NCBI GenBank assembly: GCA_945865725.1
Contig: CAMBEO010000003.1
Coordinates: forward strand, 5,111-69,110
DNA from: Thermoflexus hugenholtzii JAD2
GTDB lineage: Bacteria; Chloroflexota; UBA11872; UBA12225
DNA: 64,000 nt
Reading direction: 5' to 3'
Below the pieces are notes generated by a model. That model searched no databases and had not been told where the DNA came from. It saw only the letters and a program-made list of their open reading frames with translations. The translations under genes were made by a program, and so were the position numbers. Positions 1,372 to 64,000 of the stretch are shown one piece after another. Positions within the stretch are counted from its first letter, which is position 1; every line of letters starts with the position of its first letter.

Positions 1372-1443
1372 GGCCCTCTAGCTCAATGGCAGAGCAGTTG
1401 ACTCTTAATCAATTGGTTCAGGGTTCAAGTCCCTGGGGGGCCA
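1372..1443 (+). tRNA. tRNA-Lys (anticodon CTT)
   Basis: Cloverleaf folded by hand: acceptor GGCCCTC/GGGGGCC, D arm GCTC/GAGC, anticodon stem GTTGA/TCAAT with loop CTCTTAA (U33, CTT, A37), T arm CAGGG-TTCAAGT-CCCTG, discriminator A. CCA is not encoded. Confidence 0.85.
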
Positions 1444-3354: not shown

Positions 3355-4281
3355 CTAGCCACTGCGGTCCCCCGCGTAAAACACGTACCGGTTCGTGATC
3401 CGCACGACCACGAACAGGATGGCGAAGACGACGATGAAGTAGATCCAGCCAAGCGCCGCGGCGTACCCAAGGCGGAACCCGCCCGCGAACGCCGTCATCT
3501 GGATGTACTCGAGCACGCTATTGAACGTGTCCGTGAAGCTGTCCACGATCGTGTAGACGAGGTTGACCAGGATCACGGGCGACAGCAGGGGCAGCGTCAC
3601 CTTCCAGAACCGGTCCCAGTCTGTCGCGCCGTCGACGCGTGCCGCCTCGTAGAGGACCGGCGACACGCTGTTCAGGCCCGCAAGGAAGATGAGCATCTGC
3701 ACGCCGGTCTTCCAGAGGACGAACAGCAGGCGGTTCAGGAGGTCCGACACCCCCGCCGCGGCATCCGGGCCGATGTACTCGAAGACCAGCTCCTGGATGT
3801 TCACGCCTTGCGAGAGCGTGGCCCCGCCCACTCCCTGCGCGAACAGCTGCTTGATCACTTGCGCGGACCCGATCACCAGCGGCAGGAAGAACACCGCCCG
3901 GAACCCGATCACCCCCTTGATCTTCTGGTTCGCGAGGATTGCCGAGAACAAGCTGAAGATCATGATCACCGGCACGTCGAGCAGGTTGTTCCGCAACGTC
4001 TCCCAGAGGCGCGGCAGGAAGCGCGCGTCGATGACGAACGCCTCCTTGTAATTGTCGATGCCCTTCCACTTCAGGTCGGTCAGGCTTGTCGCCTGCAATT
4101 CATTGAAGCTCAAGAACAAGCTTTGGAACAACGGCCATGCCAGGAACACGAGGAAGCCGATCACCCACGGACTCACGAAGAAGTAGCCTTCAAGCGTGCG
4201 TTGGGTCGTCAAGGACATGCGGCGCCGCCGTGGACCCGCCCCCGCCAGCGCCTCGCTCGTTCGAGCGACCGCGATCCTCAT
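3355..4281 (-). CDS. Carbohydrate ABC transporter permease (MalF/UgpA-like)
   Basis: Six TM segments and EAA motif LYEAARVDGATDWDRFWKVTLP. ATG at 4281 with GGAAGG upstream; ATGA overlap with the upstream GH-like gene. Confidence 0.8.
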   Translation of the reverse strand: MRIAVARTSEALAGAGPRRRRMSLTTQRTLEGYFFVSPWVIGFLVFLAWPLFQSLFLSFNELQATSLTDLKWKGIDNYKEAFVIDARFLPRLWETLRNNLLDVPVIMIFSLFSAILANQKIKGVIGFRAVFFLPLVIGSAQVIKQLFAQGVGGATLSQGVNIQELVFEYIGPDAAAGVSDLLNRLLFVLWKTGVQMLIFLAGLNSVSPVLYEAARVDGATDWDRFWKVTLPLLSPVILVNLVYTIVDSFTDTFNSVLEYIQMTAFAGGFRLGYAAALGWIYFIVVFAILFVVVRITNRYVFYAGDRSG

Positions 4282-6596
4282 CGCCCGCCTGCCTTCCGTT
4301 CAAGGGCATACCCGTACCCGCGCACTTCCGCCCCGTCGGGCGTCCGCCTCGGCTCCGGGTTGTAGTTGACGTACAGGCGCGTGCCGTCCGCGTACGTCAC
4401 GCGGTTGAACTCGCGCGCCAGGATCTCGTGGTTCGTGATCGCCTGTCCCGCGAGAAACCCGAAGGTCTCCCGCATGAAGCGGTACTCGTTCGCCGCCGGT
4501 TCCAACCAGTCGTCGACCTGGCTCGAGTACAGGATGTTGTAGTCCGTTCGGATCAGGTCCGAAGACGGTGCCCAGGTGAGCTGGTACACCGGTTGCAACC
4601 CCCACTCGTACTGGCGGAGCAGCTCCGTCTTCGGGTCGTTCCGGAGGTTCGCCCGCACCGTGTGGCGCACCACCAGGCCCTGCGTCGCGATGTGGTACAC
4701 GGGCACGGCCACGTCGCCGAACGCGTCCAGCGACGCCACCGGCGCGTCGTACACCCGGTCGGTCCGACCGAGGACGTACGCGTTCGGACCCGACACGATC
4801 GCCCCGCCCAGGACCTCGCGCTCCCGGTCCGCCATCTTCATCCAGGTCTCGGCAACCTCCTGGCGCGAGAGCGGGTACCGGTCGTTGGTGTCCGACATGA
4901 CCATCGAGCCCATCTGGCGAAGGTTCACGCCATCGATGCCCATCGCCCGGTGCGTCGGCAAGTCGCGTTCGAGGTAATTGTTGCGGGCGATCACCGGGTT
5001 CAGGAGGTAGATGCCGCCCGACCCCTCGAAGACCGGCAGCTTGTTCACGCCCCGGACGGTGTCCCAGCGCGAGTTGAAGCCGTAGCTCCAGTTCGGCCAG
5101 ATGTTCCGCAGGCCGGGGATCTGCCCGATGATCCCGCCCGACGAGAACGTGTACCCGAACATGTAGTCGTCTTCCAGGATGACCCGCACGCCCAGCTCGT
5201 GCGCCGCCTTGATGAAGGCACGGAGGCCGTCATCCCCGCCCAGGCCGCTCTCGGCCGGGTACCTGCGCGGCCACCGGCCCCGGAAGCCGTCGTCCGCCCA
5301 GCCGATCAGGTGGACGTCGAAGTCCTTCACCCCGCGGTCGATGAACTGCCGGAGGATCGTGACCCCCTGCTCGAACGTCGTCGTCGGCACGAAGTCCTCG
5401 CGGAACGACGTGAGGCGCGTGATGCCCATGAACAGGTCGAGCATCGGGCGCGGCGGGTCGGCCGACACGGGCTTGAGGCCCTTGGCGGTCATGAGGTAGT
5501 CGCGGTAGGCGCGTGCCATCCCCGCGTAGCTGGAGTCATCGCCGGTCAGCAGGACGTACCGGACTTGCCGGTCGCCAGGCAGGCGTTCCTCCTCGATCTT
5601 GTTGACGAACACGCTGCGCCGGCGCGGGATGCTCGCCTGGCGACGGTAGAGGAACTCGGCCGACCCGCGGTTCGCGTTCATGATGTAACCGGCCAGGTAC
5701 GCGTTCACGTTGGCCTGGAACTCGCCTTGGGTCACGATCCCGGCGTAGGCCCCATCCGCGTGCTTCAACCCCCACAGGGGCATCGTGGGGCGCGTGACGA
5801 CCATCCCCGGCCGCCTGGAACCGCCACCGCCCGCGCCGAAGAGGTTGGACGCCACGTCCGGGCCGAAGATCTGGGCGGAGTACCGTTGCCGGTACTGCGG
5901 GTAATCGGGCTTGAACTCGACGATCGCCCCGGCGCCGTCCGGGACCATGACGTAGCCCTTCTCGCCGATGCGTGCCGCGCCGAAGAGGGGAAGCACCTCG
6001 AGTGTCACGACCTTGAAGCAGGTGCCGCTCGTCACCAGCGAGCAGTCGCCGTACTCCTCGATCCCCTTGTCGGGGATGGTGACCTCGAGGAACGGGATGG
6101 GCCGCCCGTCCGGCGCGCGGTCCTCCTTGATCGCGTAATCGACGGCGAGCCGGGTCTTGAACTTGCCGACGTCGTAGGTCGCCCGGAAGCCTCCCGGGCG
6201 TGGCACCACCGTGATCACGGGCTTCTCGGAGTTCCAGGTGAGCAGGTTCGTCATCTGGCGCTTGGCGTTGGTCACGCTCAGCAGGAAGAGCGCGTCCTCC
6301 TGCGAGGCCTTCTGCGCCGCGAGGGGCTCCAGCGGGTTGCTTGCCCACTGCTTCCCGGACCGCCGGTCCTCCACGACGAACCGCGAGTCGGTCACGTTCA
6401 CGTGCAGCCGCAGCGTCGCGGTCTCGGCAACCTGCTCGAAGCCGGCGGGGATCGGGGCGGGCGCGACCGACGATGCCACCTCGGCCCGTGCGGGGAGCGC
6501 AGGCAGCGCCCCGGTCGCGAGGACGGTCACCACCGCCAGCGCGCGCCACGCCACGCGGATCGCGGCCGTTCGTGCCACCCCTGAAAACGTCGTCAT
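4278..6596 (-). CDS. Secreted putative glycoside hydrolase-like protein (TIM-barrel-type; family not resolved)
   Basis: Internal ATG at 6596 with AGAGGA 7 nt upstream gives a clean signal peptide (MTTFSGVARTAAIRVAWRALAVVTVLATGALPALPARA). Upstream 248 codons of the long ORF are Arg/Gly/Pro-rich junk. Co-operonic with sugar permeases. Confidence 0.55.
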   Translation of the reverse strand: MTTFSGVARTAAIRVAWRALAVVTVLATGALPALPARAEVASSVAPAPIPAGFEQVAETATLRLHVNVTDSRFVVEDRRSGKQWASNPLEPLAAQKASQEDALFLLSVTNAKRQMTNLLTWNSEKPVITVVPRPGGFRATYDVGKFKTRLAVDYAIKEDRAPDGRPIPFLEVTIPDKGIEEYGDCSLVTSGTCFKVVTLEVLPLFGAARIGEKGYVMVPDGAGAIVEFKPDYPQYRQRYSAQIFGPDVASNLFGAGGGGSRRPGMVVTRPTMPLWGLKHADGAYAGIVTQGEFQANVNAYLAGYIMNANRGSAEFLYRRQASIPRRRSVFVNKIEEERLPGDRQVRYVLLTGDDSSYAGMARAYRDYLMTAKGLKPVSADPPRPMLDLFMGITRLTSFREDFVPTTTFEQGVTILRQFIDRGVKDFDVHLIGWADDGFRGRWPRRYPAESGLGGDDGLRAFIKAAHELGVRVILEDDYMFGYTFSSGGIIGQIPGLRNIWPNWSYGFNSRWDTVRGVNKLPVFEGSGGIYLLNPVIARNNYLERDLPTHRAMGIDGVNLRQMGSMVMSDTNDRYPLSRQEVAETWMKMADREREVLGGAIVSGPNAYVLGRTDRVYDAPVASLDAFGDVAVPVYHIATQGLVVRHTVRANLRNDPKTELLRQYEWGLQPVYQLTWAPSSDLIRTDYNILYSSQVDDWLEPAANEYRFMRETFGFLAGQAITNHEILAREFNRVTYADGTRLYVNYNPEPRRTPDGAEVRGYGYALERKAGGR

Positions 6597-10119: not shown

Positions 10120-11073
10120 CTAGTACTCGTTCTTGGATGAGAACATGCGCATCAGCAACCGCCCCATGCCGAACGTGAGGGCGAACAGGAAGACCGCCAC
10201 CGTCGTGGCGTACCCCATCTCAAATCGGATGAACGCGAAGTCATACATGTGCGCGACGATCGTGTGGCCGGCGTACAGCGGGCTCGGCAGCCCCGCCAGG
10301 CTCGTCGCAACCTCGAATACCGAGAACCCCGCCACCACCGCCATCACGCTGCCGAACAACAACTGCGGCTTGATCATCGGAAGCGTGATGTACCACACCT
10401 CCTGCAACGGGTTCTTGATGCCGTCCATCTTTCCCGCCTCGTACAGGTCGGTGGGAACCGTCTGCAACCCGGCGAGGAAGACCAGGAACCCCGTGCCCAT
10501 GCTCATCCACAAGGCGACGAACATGATCACCGGCATGATCGCCGCCTGCTCGGCGAGGAACATGTACGGCTCGTCGATCGCCCCGATCCCGAGCAACCAG
10601 TTGTTCAAGTACCCGTAGCGGTCGCCGGAGAAGACGATCTTCCACACCACGCCCATCGCCACCGCGCCGGTGATCGATGGCGCGTAGAAGCACAGGGCCA
10701 GCGGAGTCTTGAGCTTGAGCGGGTTGATCAGCCAGGCGAACATGAACGAGAGGAAGAACCCGATCGGGCCCGTGATGATCGCGAACGTCAGCGTGTTCCC
10801 GATCGCCGTGACGAAGACGTCGTCCTCAAGGAACAGCAACTTGTAGTTGCTCCACCCGATGAAGCGCGGCGCCTCGAGCACGTTGAAGTACGTGAAGCTC
10901 AGCGCCATCGCCGTCACGACCGGGGCGATCACGAAGACCACGAAAAAGGCGAGGAACGGCGCCATGAAGAAGTACGAGGTGCTGTACTTCCGCCACGCGA
11001 GCGCGAAACCAGCGGGCGCCTCCGCCCGTGCGGTCGAAAGCCGGGTTGCAAGCACTTCACTTCCCGTCGCCAT
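10120..11073 (-). CDS. Carbohydrate ABC transporter permease (MalF/UgpA-like)
   Basis: EAA motif LYEAGKMDGIKNPLQEVWYITLPMIKP; TM-rich. Confidence 0.85.
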   Translation of the reverse strand: MATGSEVLATRLSTARAEAPAGFALAWRKYSTSYFFMAPFLAFFVVFVIAPVVTAMALSFTYFNVLEAPRFIGWSNYKLLFLEDDVFVTAIGNTLTFAIITGPIGFFLSFMFAWLINPLKLKTPLALCFYAPSITGAVAMGVVWKIVFSGDRYGYLNNWLLGIGAIDEPYMFLAEQAAIMPVIMFVALWMSMGTGFLVFLAGLQTVPTDLYEAGKMDGIKNPLQEVWYITLPMIKPQLLFGSVMAVVAGFSVFEVATSLAGLPSPLYAGHTIVAHMYDFAFIRFEMGYATTVAVFLFALTFGMGRLLMRMFSSKNEY

Positions 11074-23879: not shown

Positions 23880-26429
23880 ATGGGCGCCCTCGAGAAAATC
23901 GCCGCCATCATCGGGCGACGGTGGCGATCGCTTCTGGTCCTCCTCGTCCTCGGCGCGGCCTTCTTCCTGTGGTTCGTGCCGAACTACGACACTGCGATGC
24001 CATACGTCCTGTACGGGGCGTACCTCCTCTTCCAGCTGTTGTTCGCCGTCCTGTTCATGATCCTCCAGTTCGCCGCCCTGTTCTGGTTCCTCGGGCGCGG
24101 GCGAACCTACTGGGTCATGCCGGGCGAGACCGGCATCGGCTTCAAGGACTACCGGGGCCAGAACGACGTCCTCGAGACCGCCGAACGATGGGTCACCCTC
24201 CTTCGCGGCGTGAAGGAGTTCAAGCGCATGGGCGGGGAGGTCAGTCGGGGACTCCTCCTCGTCGGGCCTCCCGGTACCGGCAAGTCGTACCTCGCGCAAG
24301 CGATCGCGACCGAGGCGGGCGTGCCGTTCGGCTACACCTCCGCCTCTTCGTTCCGTGCCATGTTCATGGGCATGGACGTCCTCATCGTCTGGCGCCTCTA
24401 CCGCAAGGCCCGCAACCTCGCGAGGAAGCACGGCGCCTGCATCCTGTTCATCGACGAGATCGACTCCATCGGCGCCGCCCGGACCGCCGGGATGATGGGC
24501 GGCGGCGGGATGATGGGCGGTCTCATGGGTGGGGGTGGTGCCCTCAACCAGCTGCTCATGGAGATGGACCCGCCCCGCCTCAGCGAGGGGTGGAAGGAAC
24601 GCCTCCTGCGGCGCCTCGGCATCCTCCGCCGTCCCGTCATCCGGCCCAACGTCGTGACCATGGGCGCGACGAACATCGTCGAGACCCTCGACCAGGCCCT
24701 CCTCCGCGCCGGGCGCTTTGATCGCCAGCTCACCATCGACCCGCCCGACTCCGAGGGGCGCAAGGACATCATCGAGTACTACTTGTCGAAGGTCCGCCAC
24801 GAGGACATGCCGATCGACCGCATGGCCGGCGACACCATCGGCTACACGCCCGTCACGATCAAGTACATCGTCAACGAGGCGACCGTCGTGGCCCACTTCA
24901 ACGGGCGCGACGCCATCACCTACTTCGACTTCACCGAGGCGCGCGAGGCCCACGAATGGGGCATCAAGCAGCCGATCCGGGGCATGAAGCTCGAGGAGAA
25001 GCGTCGCCTCGCCTACCATGAGGCGGGCCATGCCTTCGCCATGGCGATCCTCCAGCGAGACCAGTTCCGCGTGTCAAAGGTCACGATCCAGCGCCACGGG
25101 CGCGCCCTCGGCTTCGCGGCGCCAAAGCCCGTCGAGGAGCGCTACACGCAGACGAATGACGAGGTCCTCTCCGAGATTCAGGTTTGCCTCGCAAGTCGCG
25201 CCGCCGAGGAGCTCTTCCTCGACACGCAACTCACCGGCGTGACCAGCGACCTGCAACACGCCACGCGCCTCGCCTTGGCCTACCTGGGCATCTATGGCAT
25301 GGGGGGCAGCTTCTACTCGCACCTCGTTGGCGGCAACATGATGGGGAGCGTCCCCGAGAAGCGCCGCGCCGAGCAGCTCCTCGACGAGCAGTACACCCGC
25401 GTCAAGACCCTGCTGTCCGTCCACTCCGACACCGTCCATGCCATCGCCCAAGCCTTGGTCCAGCGAGGCGAGCTGATCGGCGACGACATCCAGCGGATCA
25501 TCGACGAGAAGGAGCGGGAACGGCAGAGCCAGGACTTGACGCTCCGCGAGGACACCCGGCGCATTGCCTACCACGAGGCGGGCCACGCGGTCGCCCAGGC
25601 AATCCTCCTTCGCCGGCAGGACATCGGACGCGTCTCCATCGTCAGCACCACCGAACCGCAGACGTTCAACGAGCTTCGCCCCCTCACCAGTCAGCAGTCG
25701 TACTCACGCGACGAAGTCCTCGCCGAGATCCAGGTCCGCCTCGCCAGTCGGGCCGCCGAGGAGCTCTTCCTGGACCTCGTCCTTGATAACTCCGCGACCG
25801 ATATCAAGCGGGCACGCGACCTTGCGCGCTACGTCATTACCTACATGAACCCGTCGGACGTCCTGTTCGTCTACGAGCCGGAAACGCCCCAGGAGGAGGA
25901 GCGCCAAGGTGGGGACGGCAGTCCGGACACCTCGACGACCACGACTGGCACCGCAGACCCTGCCGCAGCGTCCGTCACCCCTCGCACTCGACGGCCGGCC
26001 ACGGGTGGTGACGCGCGTGTCCGCCGCGAGGTCGACTCCCTTCTGCGTGCGCAATACGACACCGTCAAGGCCCTGTTGCGCGACTGCGAGGTGGAGGTGC
26101 ATCGCCTCGCACGTGCCCTCGCCGAGAAGGGCGAGCTATCAGGCACGGACGTTCGCCGCATCCTCAACGGCAAGTTGGGGGGACGCTCCTCGGCGGCCGT
26201 GATCGCGACCGCCCAGGCGATCGCGAAAGGCCTCGGCGACGATCCTGTCTCGGCGGCGATTGGCCAGGTGACGCACGGCCCCGCTGCCGGCGTTCCAGCG
26301 GTCCACGCGTCGTCCGCGGTGACGGATGGCCCAACCTCGCCGATCACCGGCGGGACGTCGGCGCTCCCAGTCCCTGCCCATCCGGACGCCGTCACGCCGC
26401 CACTGCCGATGGACGGCACGACCACCTAG
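23880..26429 (+). CDS. FtsH-like AAA+ zinc metalloprotease with tandem duplicated M41 peptidase domains
   Basis: Two N-terminal TM helices with no periplasmic domain. Walker A GPPGTGKS and Walker B ILFIDEID. Gly/Met-rich insertion (MMGGGGMMGGLMGGGG). Two HEAGH motifs (AYHEAGHAFAMAIL and AYHEAGHAVAQAIL), each with a downstream Asp (SDLQHAT and ATDIKRA). Confidence 0.85.
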   Translation: MGALEKIAAIIGRRWRSLLVLLVLGAAFFLWFVPNYDTAMPYVLYGAYLLFQLLFAVLFMILQFAALFWFLGRGRTYWVMPGETGIGFKDYRGQNDVLETAERWVTLLRGVKEFKRMGGEVSRGLLLVGPPGTGKSYLAQAIATEAGVPFGYTSASSFRAMFMGMDVLIVWRLYRKARNLARKHGACILFIDEIDSIGAARTAGMMGGGGMMGGLMGGGGALNQLLMEMDPPRLSEGWKERLLRRLGILRRPVIRPNVVTMGATNIVETLDQALLRAGRFDRQLTIDPPDSEGRKDIIEYYLSKVRHEDMPIDRMAGDTIGYTPVTIKYIVNEATVVAHFNGRDAITYFDFTEAREAHEWGIKQPIRGMKLEEKRRLAYHEAGHAFAMAILQRDQFRVSKVTIQRHGRALGFAAPKPVEERYTQTNDEVLSEIQVCLASRAAEELFLDTQLTGVTSDLQHATRLALAYLGIYGMGGSFYSHLVGGNMMGSVPEKRRAEQLLDEQYTRVKTLLSVHSDTVHAIAQALVQRGELIGDDIQRIIDEKERERQSQDLTLREDTRRIAYHEAGHAVAQAILLRRQDIGRVSIVSTTEPQTFNELRPLTSQQSYSRDEVLAEIQVRLASRAAEELFLDLVLDNSATDIKRARDLARYVITYMNPSDVLFVYEPETPQEEERQGGDGSPDTSTTTTGTADPAAASVTPRTRRPATGGDARVRREVDSLLRAQYDTVKALLRDCEVEVHRLARALAEKGELSGTDVRRILNGKLGGRSSAAVIATAQAIAKGLGDDPVSAAIGQVTHGPAAGVPAVHASSAVTDGPTSPITGGTSALPVPAHPDAVTPPLPMDGTTT

Positions 26430-40516: not shown

Positions 40517-41740
40517 TCAGGCGGGTCGGCGCGCCGTGCGGCGCAAGCGCTCCATCTGGGCCGCCGGGCGGGTCAAATATCGCTGCGACAACGGGTCGTC
40601 CTTGGGCCAGTCGAATCCGCCCGCGAGGAGCACTGAAGTCGCCTGCAGGAGGGCCGCGCACCCGCGCAGGTCATCGACGTGAACGTACTCGGCGGCGATC
40701 CCGCCCGTGGGTGCCTGGTTGTGGTAGTTCCCGAGGGGCACGCACACGGCCCCGGTCACGTATCCGGCGGCCGTGTAGGTGGTCCCCTCGCACACCCCAC
40801 CGCTCATCAGTTGCCGCTGTACTCGCGCCCCCGGATCCTCGCGCCGCATCGCGTCGCGCGCCGCCCGCAGGAGCGCGTCGCCCGCAGGATGGAAGGTCGT
40901 CGCCGCGTCGCCGACGCGGATCACCGGCCCCTCGCCGATGATTGCGCCCGGCAATTCCCGGCTTGCCTCGATCGACACCACGAGCGCATCGTCCGGCAGG
41001 CCTCGACGGGAGGCCAAGGCCGCCGCGCCAACGAGGCCGACCTCCTCCGCGCGCGTGAACACGCCACCTGAATCGGCGCCCACGCCGTCGCGCACGCAAC
41101 GTGCCAGCCACGCGAGCACGATCGCGCATCCGGCGAGATCGTCCGCCGCCGTCAGGTGGAGGCACCCTGTTGCGGGATCGTGCCGGACCGGGCCGAAGTC
41201 GAACGTGCCGAACGCACCCACCGGCACGTCCGCCTCCGACTCGAGGTCGAGTGCCACCCTCGCGTCAGGGTCGCCCGCAAGCGGCGCGGCGCCGATGACC
41301 CGGCCGGTCGCATCCTGCCACCGACCCCCACTCGCCGCCGCCCTTTCGTCATCGCGGGAAGGGTCAGCCTCCCTCCAGAAGAGGCGTACCGGCACCGGGT
41401 CGACGAACGACTCGGGGCGGATGCTGCCGAGGAGCCTCGCGCGGAGCGGCGCGACATTGGTGATTTCGAGTGCCGGGTGATCCATGTGGGCACTGACCGC
41501 GATCGAGCGGTGTGCCGACCCGCCTGGTCCGCGATGCCAGACCTGGAGGTTGCCGTCGTCGTCCGCCTCGACCGCGAGGCCAATCGTCGCGGCGAAGGCA
41601 TGAACGCAGGCGGCGATCCCGTCCTCGTGATACGCCGCCGTCGGTACCGAGCCAAGCCATGCAAGGATGTCGGCAGGATCCGCCACGTCCCCGAGGAACG
41701 CCGGTGGCTTGTCGAGGGCGGCGGCGATCTGGATGCTCAT
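40517..41740 (-). CDS. M42/M28-like metallo-aminopeptidase family protein
   Basis: Metal-binding segments SAHMDHPAL and TRAEEVGLVGA. ATG at 41740 follows GATACT with no SD (leaderless-like). Upstream part of the ORF is repeat-derived. Confidence 0.65.
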   Translation of the reverse strand: MSIQIAAALDKPPAFLGDVADPADILAWLGSVPTAAYHEDGIAACVHAFAATIGLAVEADDDGNLQVWHRGPGGSAHRSIAVSAHMDHPALEITNVAPLRARLLGSIRPESFVDPVPVRLFWREADPSRDDERAAASGGRWQDATGRVIGAAPLAGDPDARVALDLESEADVPVGAFGTFDFGPVRHDPATGCLHLTAADDLAGCAIVLAWLARCVRDGVGADSGGVFTRAEEVGLVGAAALASRRGLPDDALVVSIEASRELPGAIIGEGPVIRVGDAATTFHPAGDALLRAARDAMRREDPGARVQRQLMSGGVCEGTTYTAAGYVTGAVCVPLGNYHNQAPTGGIAAEYVHVDDLRGCAALLQATSVLLAGGFDWPKDDPLSQRYLTRPAAQMERLRRTARRPA

Positions 41741-41749
41741 CGGCGCGCA

Positions 41750-41990
41750 GTATCGCACCGGGGGAGGCCCTTCCCTCTCCCGCCTCGGCGTTGGGGGTGC
41801 TCGTGGCGCCCCCACCATCGTTATCCGCGTAGGCGACCCCTCTCCCGCCGTAGCGTCGGCAGGCACTAATCGCAGCAGATGGGAGGGGTGGGTGGTGCTT
41901 CCCTCTCCCGCCGCAGCGGGGGAGGGATTGAGGGTGGGGGCCGTCCTGCTCCCCTCTCCCGCCGGCGCGTGCGGGCGCGCATCCGGGTCG
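41750..41990 (+). repeat. Mosaic repeat cluster (modules A-D-C'-A-A')
   Basis: Four hairpin modules, including a near-perfect module A at about 41893 and the reverse of module D (CCACCATCGTTATCCGCGTA). Confidence 0.85.
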
Positions 41991-42047
41991 CTAGACTGCC
42001 AGTAGGCCCTTCGCCTCAAGGATCAATGCGGGAGGCACCCGAGTCGC

Positions 42048-56029: not shown

Positions 56030-56160
56030 CTGGGTTGGCGCGGGCACGGGGACGGCCCCCTTCCATTGGCCGCAAGCGCCCCGCGCTGCGGCGGGAGAGG
56101 GAAGCACGGCCCCCACCTTAGTTACCCGAGTACTCGGTCCCTCCCCGCCAGGGGGGACGC
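56030..56160 (+). repeat. Mosaic repeat cluster (modules E'-G-A(rev)-D(rev))
   Basis: ATTGGCCGCAAGCGCCCCGCGCTGCGGCGGGAGAGGGAAGCAC and TTAGTTACCCGAGTACTCGGTCCCTCC. Overlaps the 3' end of glf. Confidence 0.85.
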
Positions 56161-57291
56161 CGGTCGTCCTGCCCGGGCCATCGCGATCTCACCAAACACG
56201 GTCAACGCTTGCCCGACGACTTGGTGCATGTCGTAGTACTGGTACGTCGCAAGCCGCCCGGCAAAGAACGTGTCGGGGGTCTGTTGCGCGAGTTCCCGGT
56301 ACTTCCGGTACAGGGCGGCATTCTCCGGGCGCGGCACCGGGTAGTAGGGGTCGCCTGTCGCGCGCGGGAACTCGTAGACGACCGACGTCCGTGCGTGGGC
56401 CTGCCCCGTCAGGTGCTTGAACTCGGTCCGGCGAGTGTAGTCGTGGTCGTTCGGGAAGTTCACGACCGCAACCGGTTGCACGCGATCCACCGGCAACGTC
56501 TCGTGCCGGAACTCCAGCGAACGGTATGGCAGCTTGCCGAACTGCATCCCGAAGAACTCGTCGATTGGCCCCGTGTAGACCATCGTCTGGAACGGTACGA
56601 CGCCGATCAGCTCGCGATAGTCGACCCCCAGGCGAACGGTGATGTTCGGGTGCGCCAGGATCCGCTCGAACATCGCCGTGTAACCGTCGCGCGGCATCGC
56701 CTGGAAGCTGTCGGTGAAATACCGTACGTCGTCATTGGTGCGAGGCGCGATCCGGGCCAGGACGCTCGCGTCGAGCTCCGAGGGGTCGAGGCCCCACTGC
56801 TTGCGCGTGTAGTTGCGGACGAACTTCTCGTAGAGGGCGCGCCCCACCTTGGAGACGACGATGTCTTCCGAGTTGCGCACCTGGGCCACTGGTTCCGCGA
56901 CCGACGCAAACCACGCCGCGCACGCCGCCTCGTCCGGCAGTTCCAGGCCATACAACTGGTTCACCGTCGCCCGGCTGATCGGCACGGGCAAGAGTCTCCC
57001 GTCCACCTGCGCAAGCACGCGGTGCTCGTACGGGCGCCATTCGGTGAACTGGCTCAAGTACGCGACGACGCGCGCCGCGCTCGTGTGGAATATGTGGGGC
57101 CCGTACTGGTGGACGAGGATCCCCGCCTCGTCAAGGTGGTCATGTGCATTGCCGGCGACGTGCGGGCGCCGGTCGCAGACGAGGACGCGCTTCCCCGCTT
57201 GGCTCGCCAGGCGCTCGGCGATGACGGCCCCCGCGAACCCCGCCCCGACGACGAGGACGTCGACCCCCCTGACCTGTCCGACGCGCGGCAC
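56122..57291 (-). CDS. glf: UDP-galactopyranose mutase
   Basis: FAD motif VLVVGAGFAGAV and full-length UGM similarity (…HQYGPHIFHT…YYPVPRPENAALY…). GTG at 57291 directly abuts the repeat cluster. Confidence 0.85.
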   Translation of the reverse strand: MPRVGQVRGVDVLVVGAGFAGAVIAERLASQAGKRVLVCDRRPHVAGNAHDHLDEAGILVHQYGPHIFHTSAARVVAYLSQFTEWRPYEHRVLAQVDGRLLPVPISRATVNQLYGLELPDEAACAAWFASVAEPVAQVRNSEDIVVSKVGRALYEKFVRNYTRKQWGLDPSELDASVLARIAPRTNDDVRYFTDSFQAMPRDGYTAMFERILAHPNITVRLGVDYRELIGVVPFQTMVYTGPIDEFFGMQFGKLPYRSLEFRHETLPVDRVQPVAVVNFPNDHDYTRRTEFKHLTGQAHARTSVVYEFPRATGDPYYPVPRPENAALYRKYRELAQQTPDTFFAGRLATYQYYDMHQVVGQALTVFGEIAMARAGRPASPLAGRDRVLG

Positions 57292-57480
57292 CGACCACGG
57301 GACGGCCCCCACCCTCGTTATCCGAGTACTCGGTCCCTCCCCCGCTGCGGCGGGAGAGGGAAGCACCACCGCCCCTCCCCCGGGGGACGTGGTTGCCCGC
57401 GGACCAACGGGAGAGGGAAGCACTTCCCCCACCCTCAGTCCCTCCCCCGCTGCGGCGGGAGAGGGAAGCACCACCGCACG
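57292..57480 (+). repeat. Mosaic repeat cluster (reverse-orientation modules D-A-B-A)
   Basis: Three GGGAGAGGGAAGCAC cores in reverse orientation plus TTGCCCGCGGACCAACGGG. Overlaps the stop region of the glycosyltransferase. Confidence 0.9.
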
Positions 57481-58637
57481 TCCGCGAACGCGGCGTCCAT
57501 CTCGCGATCCATCGCGCCGGCGATCGCGTCCCACGAATGGGCGCGCAACACCGCTTCCTCGCGGTCGATCCGCGCGCGGCGCTGGTCAGGTTCCTCGACG
57601 AGTGCCCGGTCGATCGCATCGACAAACGCATCCGCATCACGCGCGATCGTCACGACCTCCCCAAAGGCGCGCACGACGTCCGTGACCGGCGTCGAGACGA
57701 TCGGACGGTGCGCGGCCATGTATTCGAGGGTCTTGGTGGGCGAGATGAATCGCGTCGCGTCGTTCAAGGCGAACGGCATCATGCAGGCGGCGAACTCCTT
57801 CAAGTAGGCGGGAAGCGTCGCGTATGCCTTCTGCCCGAGGTACGCGATGTTCGGCGCGACCGGCAAGTCCGCCCGGTCGACCTTGACCACTGGCCCGACC
57901 ATGGCCCATGTCACCCCCGGCCGGCGCGCCGCCACCTCGCGGAGGAGGTCGTAGTCGATCCGCTCGTCGATCACGCCGACGTAACCGACGCGTGGCACGG
58001 GCCAGGCCTCCAAGTCGCGTGGCACGGGCAAGGCTGGCGACAACGCCTTTCGGAAGTGGTCGACCTCGACGCCGCTCGAAAATGTCCGGACGCGTGCGTG
58101 GCGCCGTGCCTTCGCCTCACCAAGGCTCGCGCCACCAGCAAACGTGATCGCCGCCCGGCGAAGGAGCGACGCTTCACGGTCTGCCAGCCCCGCCGGCGCA
58201 AACCGGAACAGCGTCAACTCGTCCATCGCGTCGTACGCGATGCGAACGTTGCGCAACCGGTCGATGGCCGGCAGGAGCATCGGCGTGTAGAACCACGCGA
58301 CCGGATCCTCGAGGCCCTCGTCGTCAACGAGGGCCTCGACGAGGCGCGCGTACGCCGCGTCCAGGACGGGCCCGCCGCCGGGACCGGGATCCTGGCAGAC
58401 CGGACGCACGACCGTGACCCCGCTAGAGGCAGTCGCCCGGGGCGATCCGGATGGTGCGCGGTCGAACCGTAGCGCCGCGCCGTCCGGTGCCGGACCCGCC
58501 GCGTCCTCGAAGACTGGTTCCTCGATGAAGTAGACGCGCCGGTCGCGCGCAAACCTCGTCATCAACTGCTGGGGCCGTTGCCAGACGAAGTCCCAACGCA
58601 AGTGCGAGAAGCACAGGATCGGCGGACGCGGTCCCAC
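57435..58637 (-). CDS. Glycosyltransferase (GT1-like), putative galactofuranosyl transferase partner of glf
   Basis: GT-B fold-level similarity. GTG start with GGAG 7 nt upstream. The last 12 codons (…RWCFPLPPQRGRD) are encoded by the repeat cluster. Confidence 0.7.
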   Translation of the reverse strand: MGPRPPILCFSHLRWDFVWQRPQQLMTRFARDRRVYFIEEPVFEDAAGPAPDGAALRFDRAPSGSPRATASSGVTVVRPVCQDPGPGGGPVLDAAYARLVEALVDDEGLEDPVAWFYTPMLLPAIDRLRNVRIAYDAMDELTLFRFAPAGLADREASLLRRAAITFAGGASLGEAKARRHARVRTFSSGVEVDHFRKALSPALPVPRDLEAWPVPRVGYVGVIDERIDYDLLREVAARRPGVTWAMVGPVVKVDRADLPVAPNIAYLGQKAYATLPAYLKEFAACMMPFALNDATRFISPTKTLEYMAAHRPIVSTPVTDVVRAFGEVVTIARDADAFVDAIDRALVEEPDQRRARIDREEAVLRAHSWDAIAGAMDREMDAAFADVRWCFPLPPQRGRD

Positions 58638-58669
58638 GGTGCGCTCCGTTCCGCGCCGCGGTGGCGGGC

Positions 58670-58730
58670 ATCGGCCAATCCCCTCCCTCGCGAAGCGCGG
58701 GAGTTTTCAGCAGGGGGTGATGGGCGGGCA
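58670..58730 (+). repeat. Mosaic repeat, module C variant
   Basis: CCCTCCCTCGCGAAGCGCGGGAGTTTTCAGCAGGGGG. Confidence 0.8.
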
Positions 58731-58873
58731 TCGCCGACCCCCGTGGCCCCACAATATAGCGAGGCCCGCGCCGTGACTGGCACGCCGCCTGCCGTCGCCC
58801 GTGATCGCGGCGCGAACGAGGACGCCGCGCGCCGCCACCGGTGGTGCGCCCACGCACTGACGGGCCGCCCGCC

Positions 58874-59633
58874 GATGAACGAACGCGACGTGCGCGCCCT
58901 CCTCGACGGCGTCGCCCGGGGCGACATGCCCGTGGACGACGCGGTCCGGCGCTTGCGCGCCCTCGACACGGCTGACCTGGGCTTCGCGCGGGTCGACCGC
59001 CATCGCGCCCTTCGCCGGGGCTTTCCTGAGGTCATCTTTGCCCAAGGAAAGACTCCCGACCAGATCGCGTCCATCGCCCGAAGCCTGTACGACAGCGGTT
59101 CGCCCGTCCTTGCGACACGATGCGACCCGGACGGTGCCGCCGCCTTGGTCGCGGCGATCCCTGGTGCCACGTACGACCCGGTCTCGCGTTGCGCCGTCGC
59201 CGTGCCCCACCCGATCGATCCGGTCCCCGGGCGCGTCGTCGTCGCCACCGGTGGCACGACCGACATCCCGGTCGCCGAGGAGGCCGCGATCACTGCCTCC
59301 CTCACCGGCGTCGCCGTCGACCGCCTGTGGGACGTTGGCGTCGGCGGCATCCACCGCATGCTGGCGAATGTCTCGCTCTTTGATGACGCCGATGCGATCA
59401 TCGCCGTCGCAGGCATGGAGGGTGCCTTGCCGAGCGTCATCGCCGGCCTCGTCGCCTGCCCGGTGATCGCCGTCCCCACCAGCGTCGGGTACGGCGCGGC
59501 CTTCAACGGCCTCGCGCCGCTCCTCGGCATGCTCACCGCCTGCTCGCCCGGCGTGGCCGTGGTGAACATCGACAACGGCTTCGGCGCCGGCTACCTCGCC
59601 GGGACGATCGCCCGCCGCCTGGCCCGCCCCTGA
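58874..59633 (+). CDS. larB: Nickel-pincer cofactor biosynthesis protein LarB (PurE-like carboxylase/hydrolase)
   Basis: PurE-like core (…VVVATGGTTDIPVAEEAAITASLTG…AVAGMEGALPSVIAGLVACPVIAVPTSVGYGA…). Start is uncertain: ATG 58874 chosen, with GTG 58767 as the alternative. Confidence 0.65.
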
Positions 59634-59669
59634 CCGGTGGCGCGCCCCTTCCCGACGGGAGCCCAGACC

Positions 59670-61229
59670 ATGCGCGACTCGACCGACCCTGCGACGCCCG
59701 TGATGGCGTATTTCGAGTGCTTCTCCGGCGCGAGCGGCGACATGATCCTCGGGGCCCTCGTCGATGCCGGATGGCCCGTTGCGGCCATGCGCGCCACCTT
59801 CGAGGCAGTCGGTCTCGGCGGTTGGGCCCTCGATGTCGCCCCCACCAAGAAGGGCGCCCTTCGAGCGACCCGCGTCACCATCCGCGTGACCGAACCCCAA
59901 CCCGAGCGGTCCGTTCGCGAGATCGTTCCCATGATCGAGGCAAGCACCCTCGCCGCGACCGTCAAGGCGACAGCCATCGCCCTCTTCCGCGAGCTTGCCG
60001 ACGTGGAGGCACTACAGCACGCGGACGAGCCGGAGAACGTGCACTTCCACGAGGTCGGAGCCGTCGACTCGATCCTTGACATCATCGGCGCGGTCGCCGG
60101 CCTCGAAGCCCTGGGCGTCAATCGCGTTCGCGTGTCGCCGATGAACGTCGGCGGGGGCTTGGTGAACACGCGCGACGGCATCCTTCCCGTCCCCGGGCCA
60201 GCCACCATCGAGGTCCTGCGGCGACGCGGCATCCCGATCTACTCGACGGAGTACGGACCCGAGTTCCTCACCCCCACGGGCGCCCTCGTCCTCGCGTGCC
60301 TCGCCGACGACAGCGGCCCCTTCCCCGCGATGACCGTCACGCGCATCGGCTACGGCGCCGGCCAGAAGGACTTCCGGATCCCGAACGTCCTGCGGGTCTC
60401 CATCGGTCCTGCCCTCCCCGGTCCCGACCCGGTCGGACGCGTCCGCGCGGCCCTTGCCGCCATCGACCCGGTTCGCGCCAGTGCGGACCACGGCCCGCAT
60501 GAGCCTCAAGCGGTGCCTGACGTCGGGTTGGATGACCACGGGCACGACCACGGGCACGGGCACGACCACGGGCACGGGCACGGGCACGGGCACGACCACG
60601 GGCACGGGCACGACCACGGGCACGGGCACGGGCACGACGGCGAACACGGGCAGGGCGCCTCTTTAAATTGGCCGCAAGCGCCCCGCGCTGCGGCGGGAGA
60701 GGGGAGAACCGCCCCCTCTCACTTCCGAGGTGTCGCACCGGTGACGAGTTCCGTGGACGCCGAACGCCTCGGGTACCTCGAGGACGAGGTGGTCCAACTC
60801 GAGACGAACGTCGACGACATGAGCGGCGAGTGGTTCGGTTACCTCTCCGAGACCTTGATGGCCCGGGGTGCCCTCGACGTCACCATGCTCCCGGCGACGA
60901 TGAAGAAGGGGCGACCTGCGACGGTGATTTCCGTCCTCGTGCGCCCCGAACGGGCTGAAGAGGCGATCACCGCCCTGTTCCGCGAGACGACTACCTTAGG
61001 CGTGCGCGTGGGTTCAACCAGGCGACTGATGCTTCCCCGGCGGTCCGACGTGATAGAGACCGAGTACGGCACGATCCGCGTCAAGGTCGCGTTGCACGGA
61101 ACGGTCGTCCGCGGCATCGCACCCGAGTACGAGGACTGCCGGGCCGCGGCCTCCCGCGCCGACGTGCCCCTTCAAGTTGTCATGGCCGCCGCGTCCGACG
61201 AGTGGCGACGCCGGCTCCGCACGGCCTGA
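59670..61229 (+). CDS. larC: Nickel insertion protein LarC (DUF111/TIGR00299 family) with His-rich linker
   Basis: N-terminal YFECFSGASGDM motif and a His-rich tract (HGHDHGHGHDHGHGHGHGHDHGHGHDHGHGHGHD). A mosaic repeat is inserted in frame after it. The C-terminal domain is intact. ATG at 59670 has a GGGAG RBS; a GTG at 59637 is also possible. Confidence 0.8.
   Translation: MRDSTDPATPVMAYFECFSGASGDMILGALVDAGWPVAAMRATFEAVGLGGWALDVAPTKKGALRATRVTIRVTEPQPERSVREIVPMIEASTLAATVKATAIALFRELADVEALQHADEPENVHFHEVGAVDSILDIIGAVAGLEALGVNRVRVSPMNVGGGLVNTRDGILPVPGPATIEVLRRRGIPIYSTEYGPEFLTPTGALVLACLADDSGPFPAMTVTRIGYGAGQKDFRIPNVLRVSIGPALPGPDPVGRVRAALAAIDPVRASADHGPHEPQAVPDVGLDDHGHDHGHGHDHGHGHGHGHDHGHGHDHGHGHGHDGEHGQGASLNWPQAPRAAAGEGRTAPSHFRGVAPVTSSVDAERLGYLEDEVVQLETNVDDMSGEWFGYLSETLMARGALDVTMLPATMKKGRPATVISVLVRPERAEEAITALFRETTTLGVRVGSTRRLMLPRRSDVIETEYGTIRVKVALHGTVVRGIAPEYEDCRAAASRADVPLQVVMAAASDEWRRRLRTA
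60655..60725 (+). repeat. Mosaic repeat module G located inside the larC reading frame
   Basis: AATTGGCCGCAAGCGCCCCGCGCTGCGGCGGGAGAGG is identical to the copy at about 56045. Translated in frame as ...SLNWPQAPRAAAGEGRTAPSHF... Confidence 0.85.
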
Positions 61230-63926: not shown

Positions 63927-64000
63927 GTGTTGATGAGTTGCTCGATCGCGATCGCCGCGGGCCTGAACCCGTACGTCACGACCCTTTTCGTCGCCGCCCT
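63927..64000 (+). CDS. Hypothetical membrane protein, 5' fragment (continues past the window end)
   Basis: GTG with GGAGGT 7 nt upstream. The hydrophobic N-terminus runs off the window. Confidence 0.3.
   Translation, partial: MLMSCSIAIAAGLNPYVTTLFVAA

Follow-up and report, generated by a model that had tools for sequence, protein, structure and literature searches.

Short interspersed palindromic repeats can lie within bacterial genes as well as between them. We analyzed a stretch of 64,000 nucleotides (nt) of contig CAMBEO010000003.1 from a Thermoflexus-related member of the Chloroflexota (the whole stretch is referred to below as the window), in which a repeat-derived segment is found inside larC, the gene of the nickel-pincer cofactor cyclometallase LarC, a protein with two domains, LarC1 and LarC2. 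The Rickettsia palindromic elements (RPEs) are a close parallel: they are short palindromic interspersed repeats located in intergenic regions and inside open reading frames (ORFs), where they are in frame, free of stop codons and add a peptide at a permissive place of the protein (PMC10969869). RPEs, found in an alphaproteobacterium with an obligate intracellular life, are AT-rich, about 100-150 bp long and often intragenic (44 insertions in R. conorii), whereas the larC unit comprises about 66 nt, is very GC-rich, and belongs to a family of which 2 of about 19 units touch coding sequence. Repetitive extragenic palindromic (REP) sequences and bacterial interspersed mosaic elements (BIMEs) are imperfect palindromes of 20-40 nt, present in high copy number and arranged in mosaic intergenic arrays. 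A REP survey by Di Nocera et al. (2013), which covered Chloroflexi, found that some units lie completely within ORFs and that others, at gene ends, donate stop codons (PMC3733652); both situations are seen in the window. Bacterial MITEs (miniature transposable elements with inverted repeats), i.e. ERIC, BOX, Correia and the cyanobacterial elements, are likewise small non-autonomous hairpin repeats, and the host ORF can stay open around them, with in-frame fusions as a result (PMC10969869). In-frame intragenic palindromic repeats are already documented, and the larC case is a further example.

The architecture of LarC is known from a 2026 cryo-electron microscopy study of the Moorella thermoacetica protein, in which LarC2 forms a hexameric core and LarC1 forms trimers carried on flexible linkers (PMC13510736). 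The Moorella linker consists of 13 residues whose sequence is not conserved, and its deletion, shortening, stiffening or replacement left less than 10% of the activity; the histidines essential for function and the catalytic nickel site lie on the LarC1 surface, outside the linker (PMC13510736). In Lactiplantibacillus plantarum larC1 and larC2 are two ORFs joined by a programmed frameshift (PMC13510736), unlike the window gene and its close orthologues, which have one two-domain ORF with or without the element.

In the window larC is an unbroken ORF (59637-61229, + strand), which gives 530 amino acids (aa) from the first GTG codon; residue numbers below refer to this reading. The ATG at 59670 is the likely true start, giving 519 aa, since it agrees with the gene call in a European Nucleotide Archive (ENA) assembly of the locus, L081, and with the N-termini of orthologous proteins. 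The features of the gene and the sister copy of its repeat are as follows.

59670-61229, + strand: larC, a single ORF of 519 aa with LarC1 and LarC2 in one frame (Pfam PF01969, E=4e-125)
59706-60404, + strand: LarC1 (N-terminal) domain, Pfam stretch of residues 24-256, AlphaFold confidence mostly high
60405-60788, + strand: interdomain linker of about 128 aa, flanked by the profile matches of LarC1 and LarC2 and predicted to be disordered; its length is hypervariable among orthologues
60531-60650, + strand: His-rich (HG/HD)n tract, a tandem DNA repeat with a period of 12/18 (direct-repeat family D4)
about 60657-60722, + strand: in-frame segment derived from the repeat, about 66 nt or 22 codons long, reading ASLNWPQAPRAAAGEGRTAPSH, with an exact core at 60667-60703
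60789-61142, + strand: LarC2 (C-terminal, CTP-binding) domain, NF052512 match at residues 385-502, modelled confidently by AlphaFold
56055-56120, + strand: intergenic sister copy of the same repeat variant ("module G"; direct-repeat family D5), outside the segments conserved with a related Thermoflexus genome, L001

Both domains are readily recognized on either side of the segment. The product scores 418 bits with PF01969 (cut-off 22.1), 184 bits with TIGR00299, the N-terminal LarC1 profile (cut-off 90), and, in the same ORF, 145.6 bits with NF052512, the CTP-binding LarC2 profile (cut-off 50). In the NCBIfam matches LarC1 occupies residues 91-255 and LarC2 residues 385-502, both in one frame, and a coding signature of GC content at the three codon positions (GC1/2/3) is present in the larC frame on both sides of the repeat segment. 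Directly 3′ of the (HG/HD)n tract the protein reads ...GQGASLNWPQAPRAAAGEGRTAPSHFRGV.... The first-pass annotation of this DNA, made from the letters alone, had described larC as continuous across a repeat that directly follows the His-rich tract; both observations held. As in RPE-bearing genes, the unit keeps the frame of a conserved ORF, has no stops and leaves the host domains on either side intact.

The same annotation regarded the larC copy as identical to an intergenic copy near 56045. The match is real but not complete: an exact 37-nt core (60667-60703 = 56065-56101) is bordered by flanks that diverge. A 36-nt pattern derived from the segment occurs at exactly two sites in the window (60668-60703 and 56066-56101) and had no match in any of 100 shuffled sequences. 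Gapped local alignment of the two copies, covering 60645-60716, gave a score of 90, whereas 300 shuffles reached no more than 27; its 72 columns contain 8 mismatches and 2 gaps (approximately 86% identity), which lie in the flanks of the core. Beyond the core, the similarity of larC runs on into a diverged form of the family spacer, GCCCCCTCTCACTTCC. The 3′ limit of the segment was placed where an orthologue-like motif returns (FRGV, compared with LRGV/LRDV in relatives), and the 5′ edge could reach back to 60645; it is uncertain because units of the family often start with CACGGGACGGCCCCC, which is similar to the CACGGG codons of the His tract. The possible ends of the copy are therefore 60645-60657 (5′) and about 60716-60725 (3′), both diverged and ambiguous.

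Three further assemblies agree with the locus, of which only L081 crosses the whole element. They were found via a neighbouring protein with a MEDS domain, an exact look-up of the LarC sequence having given no match. L081 shares 12,757 nt with the window at 100% identity, through the element, and its gene caller predicted larC as one 519-aa gene that includes the element and encodes a 100% identical protein. The first-pass annotation had regarded a frameshift or stop revealed here by sequencing as evidence against its view; in L081, from the same organism, the gene is open throughout. In L082, the Logan assembly made from another run, identity to the window extends from 63000 to 60679, where the contig stops inside the 37-nt exact core, and it thus contains the 3′ junction; such a break is expected of a k=31 assembler when a repeat of 31 nt or more has two contexts in the reads. 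L083 spans 63000-60966 and ends short of the element. Misassembly of the larC element is very unlikely, because the flanks on both sides belong to larC, with order and frame preserved, L081 is identical and L082 is consistent.

The segment belongs to a family dispersed over the window. The 20-nt core GCGGCGGGAGAGGGAAGCAC, which forms the 3′ half of the larC core, has 16 window matches at up to 3 mismatches (0.03 expected) and 19 at up to 4, a density of about one unit per 3-4 kb. When the clusters were compared side by side, the family proved to be a mosaic with a common GCCCCCACCCTCAGT spacer, an CCCTCCCCCGC / GCGGGAGAGGG hairpin, an AAGCAC tail and alternative inserts; "module G" is one variant among these inserts. 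Among the 19 core hits, only the larC copy has the in-frame coding GC1/2/3 signature on both sides. One other hit lies 17 nt from the 3′ end of a glycosyltransferase gene and the remainder are intergenic or in 5′ over-extensions of ORFs, so that all but two units lie outside conserved coding sequence. The canonical unit is free of stop codons in five of its six frames, and so is module G.

Within a cluster, units share one orientation. Upstream of 54 kb every one of the 11 repeat cores is on the − strand (7452-53917), and downstream of 56 kb each of the 5 is on the + strand (56088-60709). A replication landmark behind this strand flip at 54-56 kb was considered and rejected, GC skew being negative throughout. 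In the part of L081 that extends beyond the window, at least three more repeat clusters are found in spacers (4255-4403, 6014-6210 and 6173-6339).

Against the known classes the family compares as follows. REP sequences of the GTAG and CGTC superfamilies are defined by an imperfect palindrome with a stem of 5-13 bp, one of these two tetranucleotides conserved at an end of the stem, and a cognate REP-associated tyrosine transposase (RAYT) of the IS200/IS605 type. The stem CCCTC-CCCGC/GCGGGAGAGGG of the window family folds as a hairpin and is a short palindrome in high copy number. However, canonical units, which read ...CCCTCAGT-stem-AAGCACC..., have by visual inspection no GTAG/CTAC or CGTC/GACG tag beside the stem; the units of a cluster have the same orientation and do not form head-to-head pairs; and the 33 window ORFs, which represent a small fraction of the genome, include no RAYT transposase. 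MITEs are marked by terminal inverted repeats flanked by a target-site duplication; in the larC copy the ends are diverged and ambiguous, and no parent IS element is known for the family. It would best be described as a REP/BIME- or MITE-like lineage-specific repeat, and no named family was assigned.

Searches of public collections gave no further copies. With Rfam gathering thresholds applied to the whole window, the sole match was a tRNA (1372-1443), and none fell on the repeat. An exact scan for the module-G variant in 185,579 GTDB species-representative genomes, among which the source genome is not included, gave no hits. Neither module G nor the canonical core was found in Joint Genome Institute (JGI) metagenome contigs or in viral contigs, and the family core was absent from 80 larC loci of other species.

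The closest LarC from a large protein search has approximately 78% identity, and the best hits are all from uncultured Chloroflexota. Alignment of orthologues had been suggested by the first-pass annotation as a check, and the segment is missing from all 29 aligned orthologues, the nearest of which are approximately 75-78% identical; all are single proteins with both domains. Among 137 retrieved proteins none contains 5-mers of the segment peptide, except for the chance occurrence of RAAAG. L001, a metagenome-assembled genome of Thermoflexus sp., is syntenic with window positions 49-64 kb at 70-77% DNA identity. Within larC, its DNA alignment to the window has a gap only between 60455 and 60773, and its linker reads ...HDGRPEDTDGPIQPSGGLRDVSSLPGSQYLEDEVV, without the repeat. 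No interspersed repeats of any kind were found in 21 kb of L001, which lacks a unit at every unit-bearing site of window positions 49-64 kb, giving a presence/absence polymorphism. The long linkers of the five loci L001-L005, compared with the remainder of each locus to see whether they too come from local repeats, gave no hits. Given the absence of the family from L001, from the 80 larC loci and from the searched collections, its expansion appears to be specific to the lineage of the window, after the split from sampled relatives, and the larC copy appears to be the derived state.

An alternative put forward in the first-pass annotation, that the element fuses LarC1 and LarC2 frames that are separate in other organisms, was rejected. 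Every close orthologue that lacks the element is already a single ORF, 464-549 aa long and carrying both domains; the fusion is therefore older than the element and independent of it.

The place of the segment within the protein is a long and variable tether. The linkers of orthologues contain His-X repeats that differ in kind and length; since the unit and length of the tract differ in nearly every orthologue, the DNA comparison suggests that the His tract may have expanded independently in each lineage by slippage. In the window the tract (60525-60662) is microsatellite-like, as is its L001 counterpart (10812-10937, period 21). AlphaFold2, run with a 30-sequence alignment, predicted both domains mostly with high confidence, while residues 277-375, including the His tract, had predicted local distance difference test (pLDDT) values below 50 and no secondary structure. 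The repeat-derived residues, 341-362, are inside this low-pLDDT stretch, a site that is permissive according to the prediction. The first-pass annotation called the His-rich run a metal-binding tract. A His-rich (HG/HD)n run is indeed present, but it is a lineage-specific linker expansion and not the conserved catalytic nickel site, which is on the LarC1 surface (PMC13510736); a nickel-handling role for it is only conjecture.

In our view, the larC segment is very probably an in-frame insertion of a REP/MITE-like repeat that is tolerated in the hypervariable linker. A unit of a lineage-specific, high-copy, GC-rich palindromic family would have entered larC after the split from the nearest sampled relatives, landing in the long, flexible, length-variable His-rich linker between LarC1 and LarC2. 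With a net length that is a multiple of three and a stop-free frame, it would be read through and add approximately 22 residues (ASLNWPQAPRAAAGEGRTAPSH) to a disordered tether that already had roughly 100-130. LarC most likely still works, the insert being a tolerated passenger. Given a dense family with one unit per 3-4 kb and five of six frames open, an in-frame, stop-free survivor at a permissive spot is to be expected. The first-pass annotation had offered a mobile repeat in a tolerant linker as one of two readings, and the family of 16-19 units, its absence from 29 orthologues and L001, and the predicted disorder all favour it. We infer arrival by insertion, whether through transposition or recombination, as well as translation and functional neutrality of the segment.

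Several points weigh against this interpretation. Changes to the Moorella linker cut activity, so an alteration here is not automatically harmless, but lengthening was not among the changes made in that protein, whose linker has 13 residues. A Pfam scan of the 33 window ORFs, a small part of the genome, found no mobilising transposase, RAYT or other. In the larC copy, divergence is greater in the flanks than in the core, and three C-to-A/T changes create a TTTAAA in a genome of 69% GC; such flanks could hint at selection on the larC copy and not at pure neutrality. The nearest segment-free LarC proteins are approximately 75-78% identical, with linkers that are unalignable at the DNA level, and no empty site was found in a close relative; the insertion event, its exact ends and any target-site duplication are thus deduced indirectly. 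L081-L083 come from the same organism at 100% identity and carry no evolutionary information.

One alternative is that the insertion inactivated larC and that the gene is a recent pseudogene that still looks intact. The loss of most activity upon linker changes in Moorella LarC (PMC13510736) would fit such an outcome. We nevertheless consider it improbable, as the ORF is intact, strong scores are obtained with the profiles of both domains, the coding signature persists on either side, and all 129 alignment columns that are invariant across 30 LarC sequences include the window protein. Moreover, the insert lengthens a linker that was already long and variable, with no shortening or stiffening.

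Another alternative assumes that the element was co-opted after its insertion, selection having reshaped it into a recoding or pausing signal, i.e. a −1 frameshift site or strong pause at the LarC1/LarC2 boundary that yields a LarC1-only product besides full-length LarC. Two features bear on this possibility.

60662-60668, + strand: T_TTA_AAT heptamer of the X_XXY_YYZ type, in larC phase (codons TCT TTA AAT), at the diverged 5′ edge of the element
60671-60720, + strand: two adjacent hairpins in the larC mRNA sense (-18.4 and -22.3 kcal/mol)

The heptamer is in the correct phase and contains the sole TTTAAA of the 64-kb window (60662-60667). The first-pass annotation had noted this hexamer as the only one in the region, which is accurate for the whole window; its being alone is not significant in itself, at least one TTTAAA being present in 28 of 100 shuffles. 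The intergenic copy has CTTCCAT where larC has TTTAAAT, so three C-to-A/T changes, counter to genome composition, would have produced U_UUA_AAU before two stable hairpins. The larC of L. plantarum, with its programmed frameshift at the domain boundary (PMC13510736), offers a precedent. Even so, the zero frame already encodes a complete enzyme, and the −1 frame gives a 96-residue Arg-rich tail with a stop at 60958, which resembles an off-frame reading of a GC-rich gene and not a domain. The first hairpin begins at 60671, leaving a spacer of 2 nt, whereas at known −1 frameshift sites the structure lies about 5-9 nt away. The hairpin z-scores, -1.4 and -2.3, are ordinary for this GC content, and TTTAAAT is absent from larC of the nearest orthologue loci. 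Recoding or pausing is thus, in our judgement, decidedly improbable. If it did occur, the signal would set the ratio of a product composed of LarC1 plus the His tract to full-length LarC, and it would parallel the larC1/larC2 frameshift of lactobacilli, having evolved independently from a selfish repeat.

It is highly improbable that the direction is reversed, the segment being native to the larC linker and the intergenic copy (56055-56120), or even the whole family, being derived from it. The module-G variant has only two copies in about 72 kb of this genome, and at its 5′ end the similarity extends over CACGGG codons that resemble those of the His tract, as might be anticipated for such an origin. 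However, the arm that makes up the 3′ half of the segment is common to the family and recurs at 16 or more other places, CACGGGACGGCCCCC-like starts are present at other units far from larC, no orthologue carries the segment, and the larC copy is further from the family consensus (GGGGAGAAC vs GGGAAGCAC). The weakest alternative, a repeat-induced chimera or collapse that put the element into larC during assembly, is suggested by the metagenomic origin of the sequence and by the repeated nature of the element, yet it has a negligible probability, for larC sequence borders the element on both sides, in one frame and in the right order, the exact repeat of just 37 nt is far under the k=141 implied by the contig name, and L081 is identical through the element while L082 contains its 3′ junction.

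The insertion in larC, as we interpret it, is accompanied by a second unit that is part of a gene.

57435-57477, − strand: canonical repeat unit at the 3′ end of a glycosyltransferase gene, supplying its last 13 codons (RWCFPLPPQRGRD) and the TGA stop

The glycosyltransferase gene (57435-58637, − strand) encodes 400 aa ending in ...DVRWCFPLPPQRGRD before the stop and is called in L081. Its repeat unit is read on the opposite strand. The L001 orthologue also has 400 aa, with an unrelated C-terminus (...GVTLRGSA and stop). The first-pass annotation considered translation of this repeat class to be rare. Only 2 of approximately 19 window units touch coding sequence, but the larC copy is not unique, the glycosyltransferase C-terminus being of the same origin. 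Translation is less rare than was claimed, given this second unit, the five of six open frames and the intragenic REPs documented elsewhere (PMC3733652, PMC10969869).

Mechanically called ORFs run through several repeat clusters (56122-57534, − strand; 58578-59633, + strand; 40517-42019, − strand), since the repeats are GC-rich and mostly stop-free. Spurious N-terminal extensions result for the UDP-galactopyranose mutase gene, larB and the M42 peptidase gene. For annotation this means that stop-poor, GC-rich repeats lengthen ORF calls and donate stops, so that gene starts and gene models in this genome are easily over-called.

The neighbourhood of larC includes another lar gene.

58773-59633, + strand: larB, directly upstream of larC (NCBIfam LarB, E=2e-81), a 286-aa gene in L081

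The NF033503 (LarB) score is 272.6 bits, and larC is thus associated in the genome with another gene of its kind. Neither larE nor larA was seen in the listed gene neighbourhood around larC, and no internal terminator or promoter was found within larC. Elsewhere in the window there is a tRNA gene at 1372-1443 (+ strand). An FtsH-like ORF (23880-26429, + strand) is unusually long (849 aa) and has two Peptidase_M41 stretches; within it, two 66-nt stretches that are 552 nt apart, 25158-25223 and 25710-25775, form a direct repeat with 88% identity, and the ORF may have undergone an internal duplication. Positions 1-7868 of L081 extend beyond the window end at 64000 and carry an ATP synthase operon, an EPSP synthase gene and mreB.

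The larC locus provides a Chloroflexota case of a selfish interspersed repeat carried as predicted translated sequence within a conserved enzyme. The repeat family is apparently undescribed and lineage-specific: Rfam gave no match, none of the public collections searched yielded copies, and a brief literature search found no published description of repeats in this clade. As an example it is useful but modest, since the phenomenon is known; the host clade, the repeat family and the functionally relevant linker site add value. The locus may be viewed as a natural experiment, in which a linker that is functionally sensitive in Moorella (PMC13510736) has reached about 130 residues via a His microsatellite and a repeat unit. 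If this LarC is active, the length of the tether would be far more permissive upward than downward.

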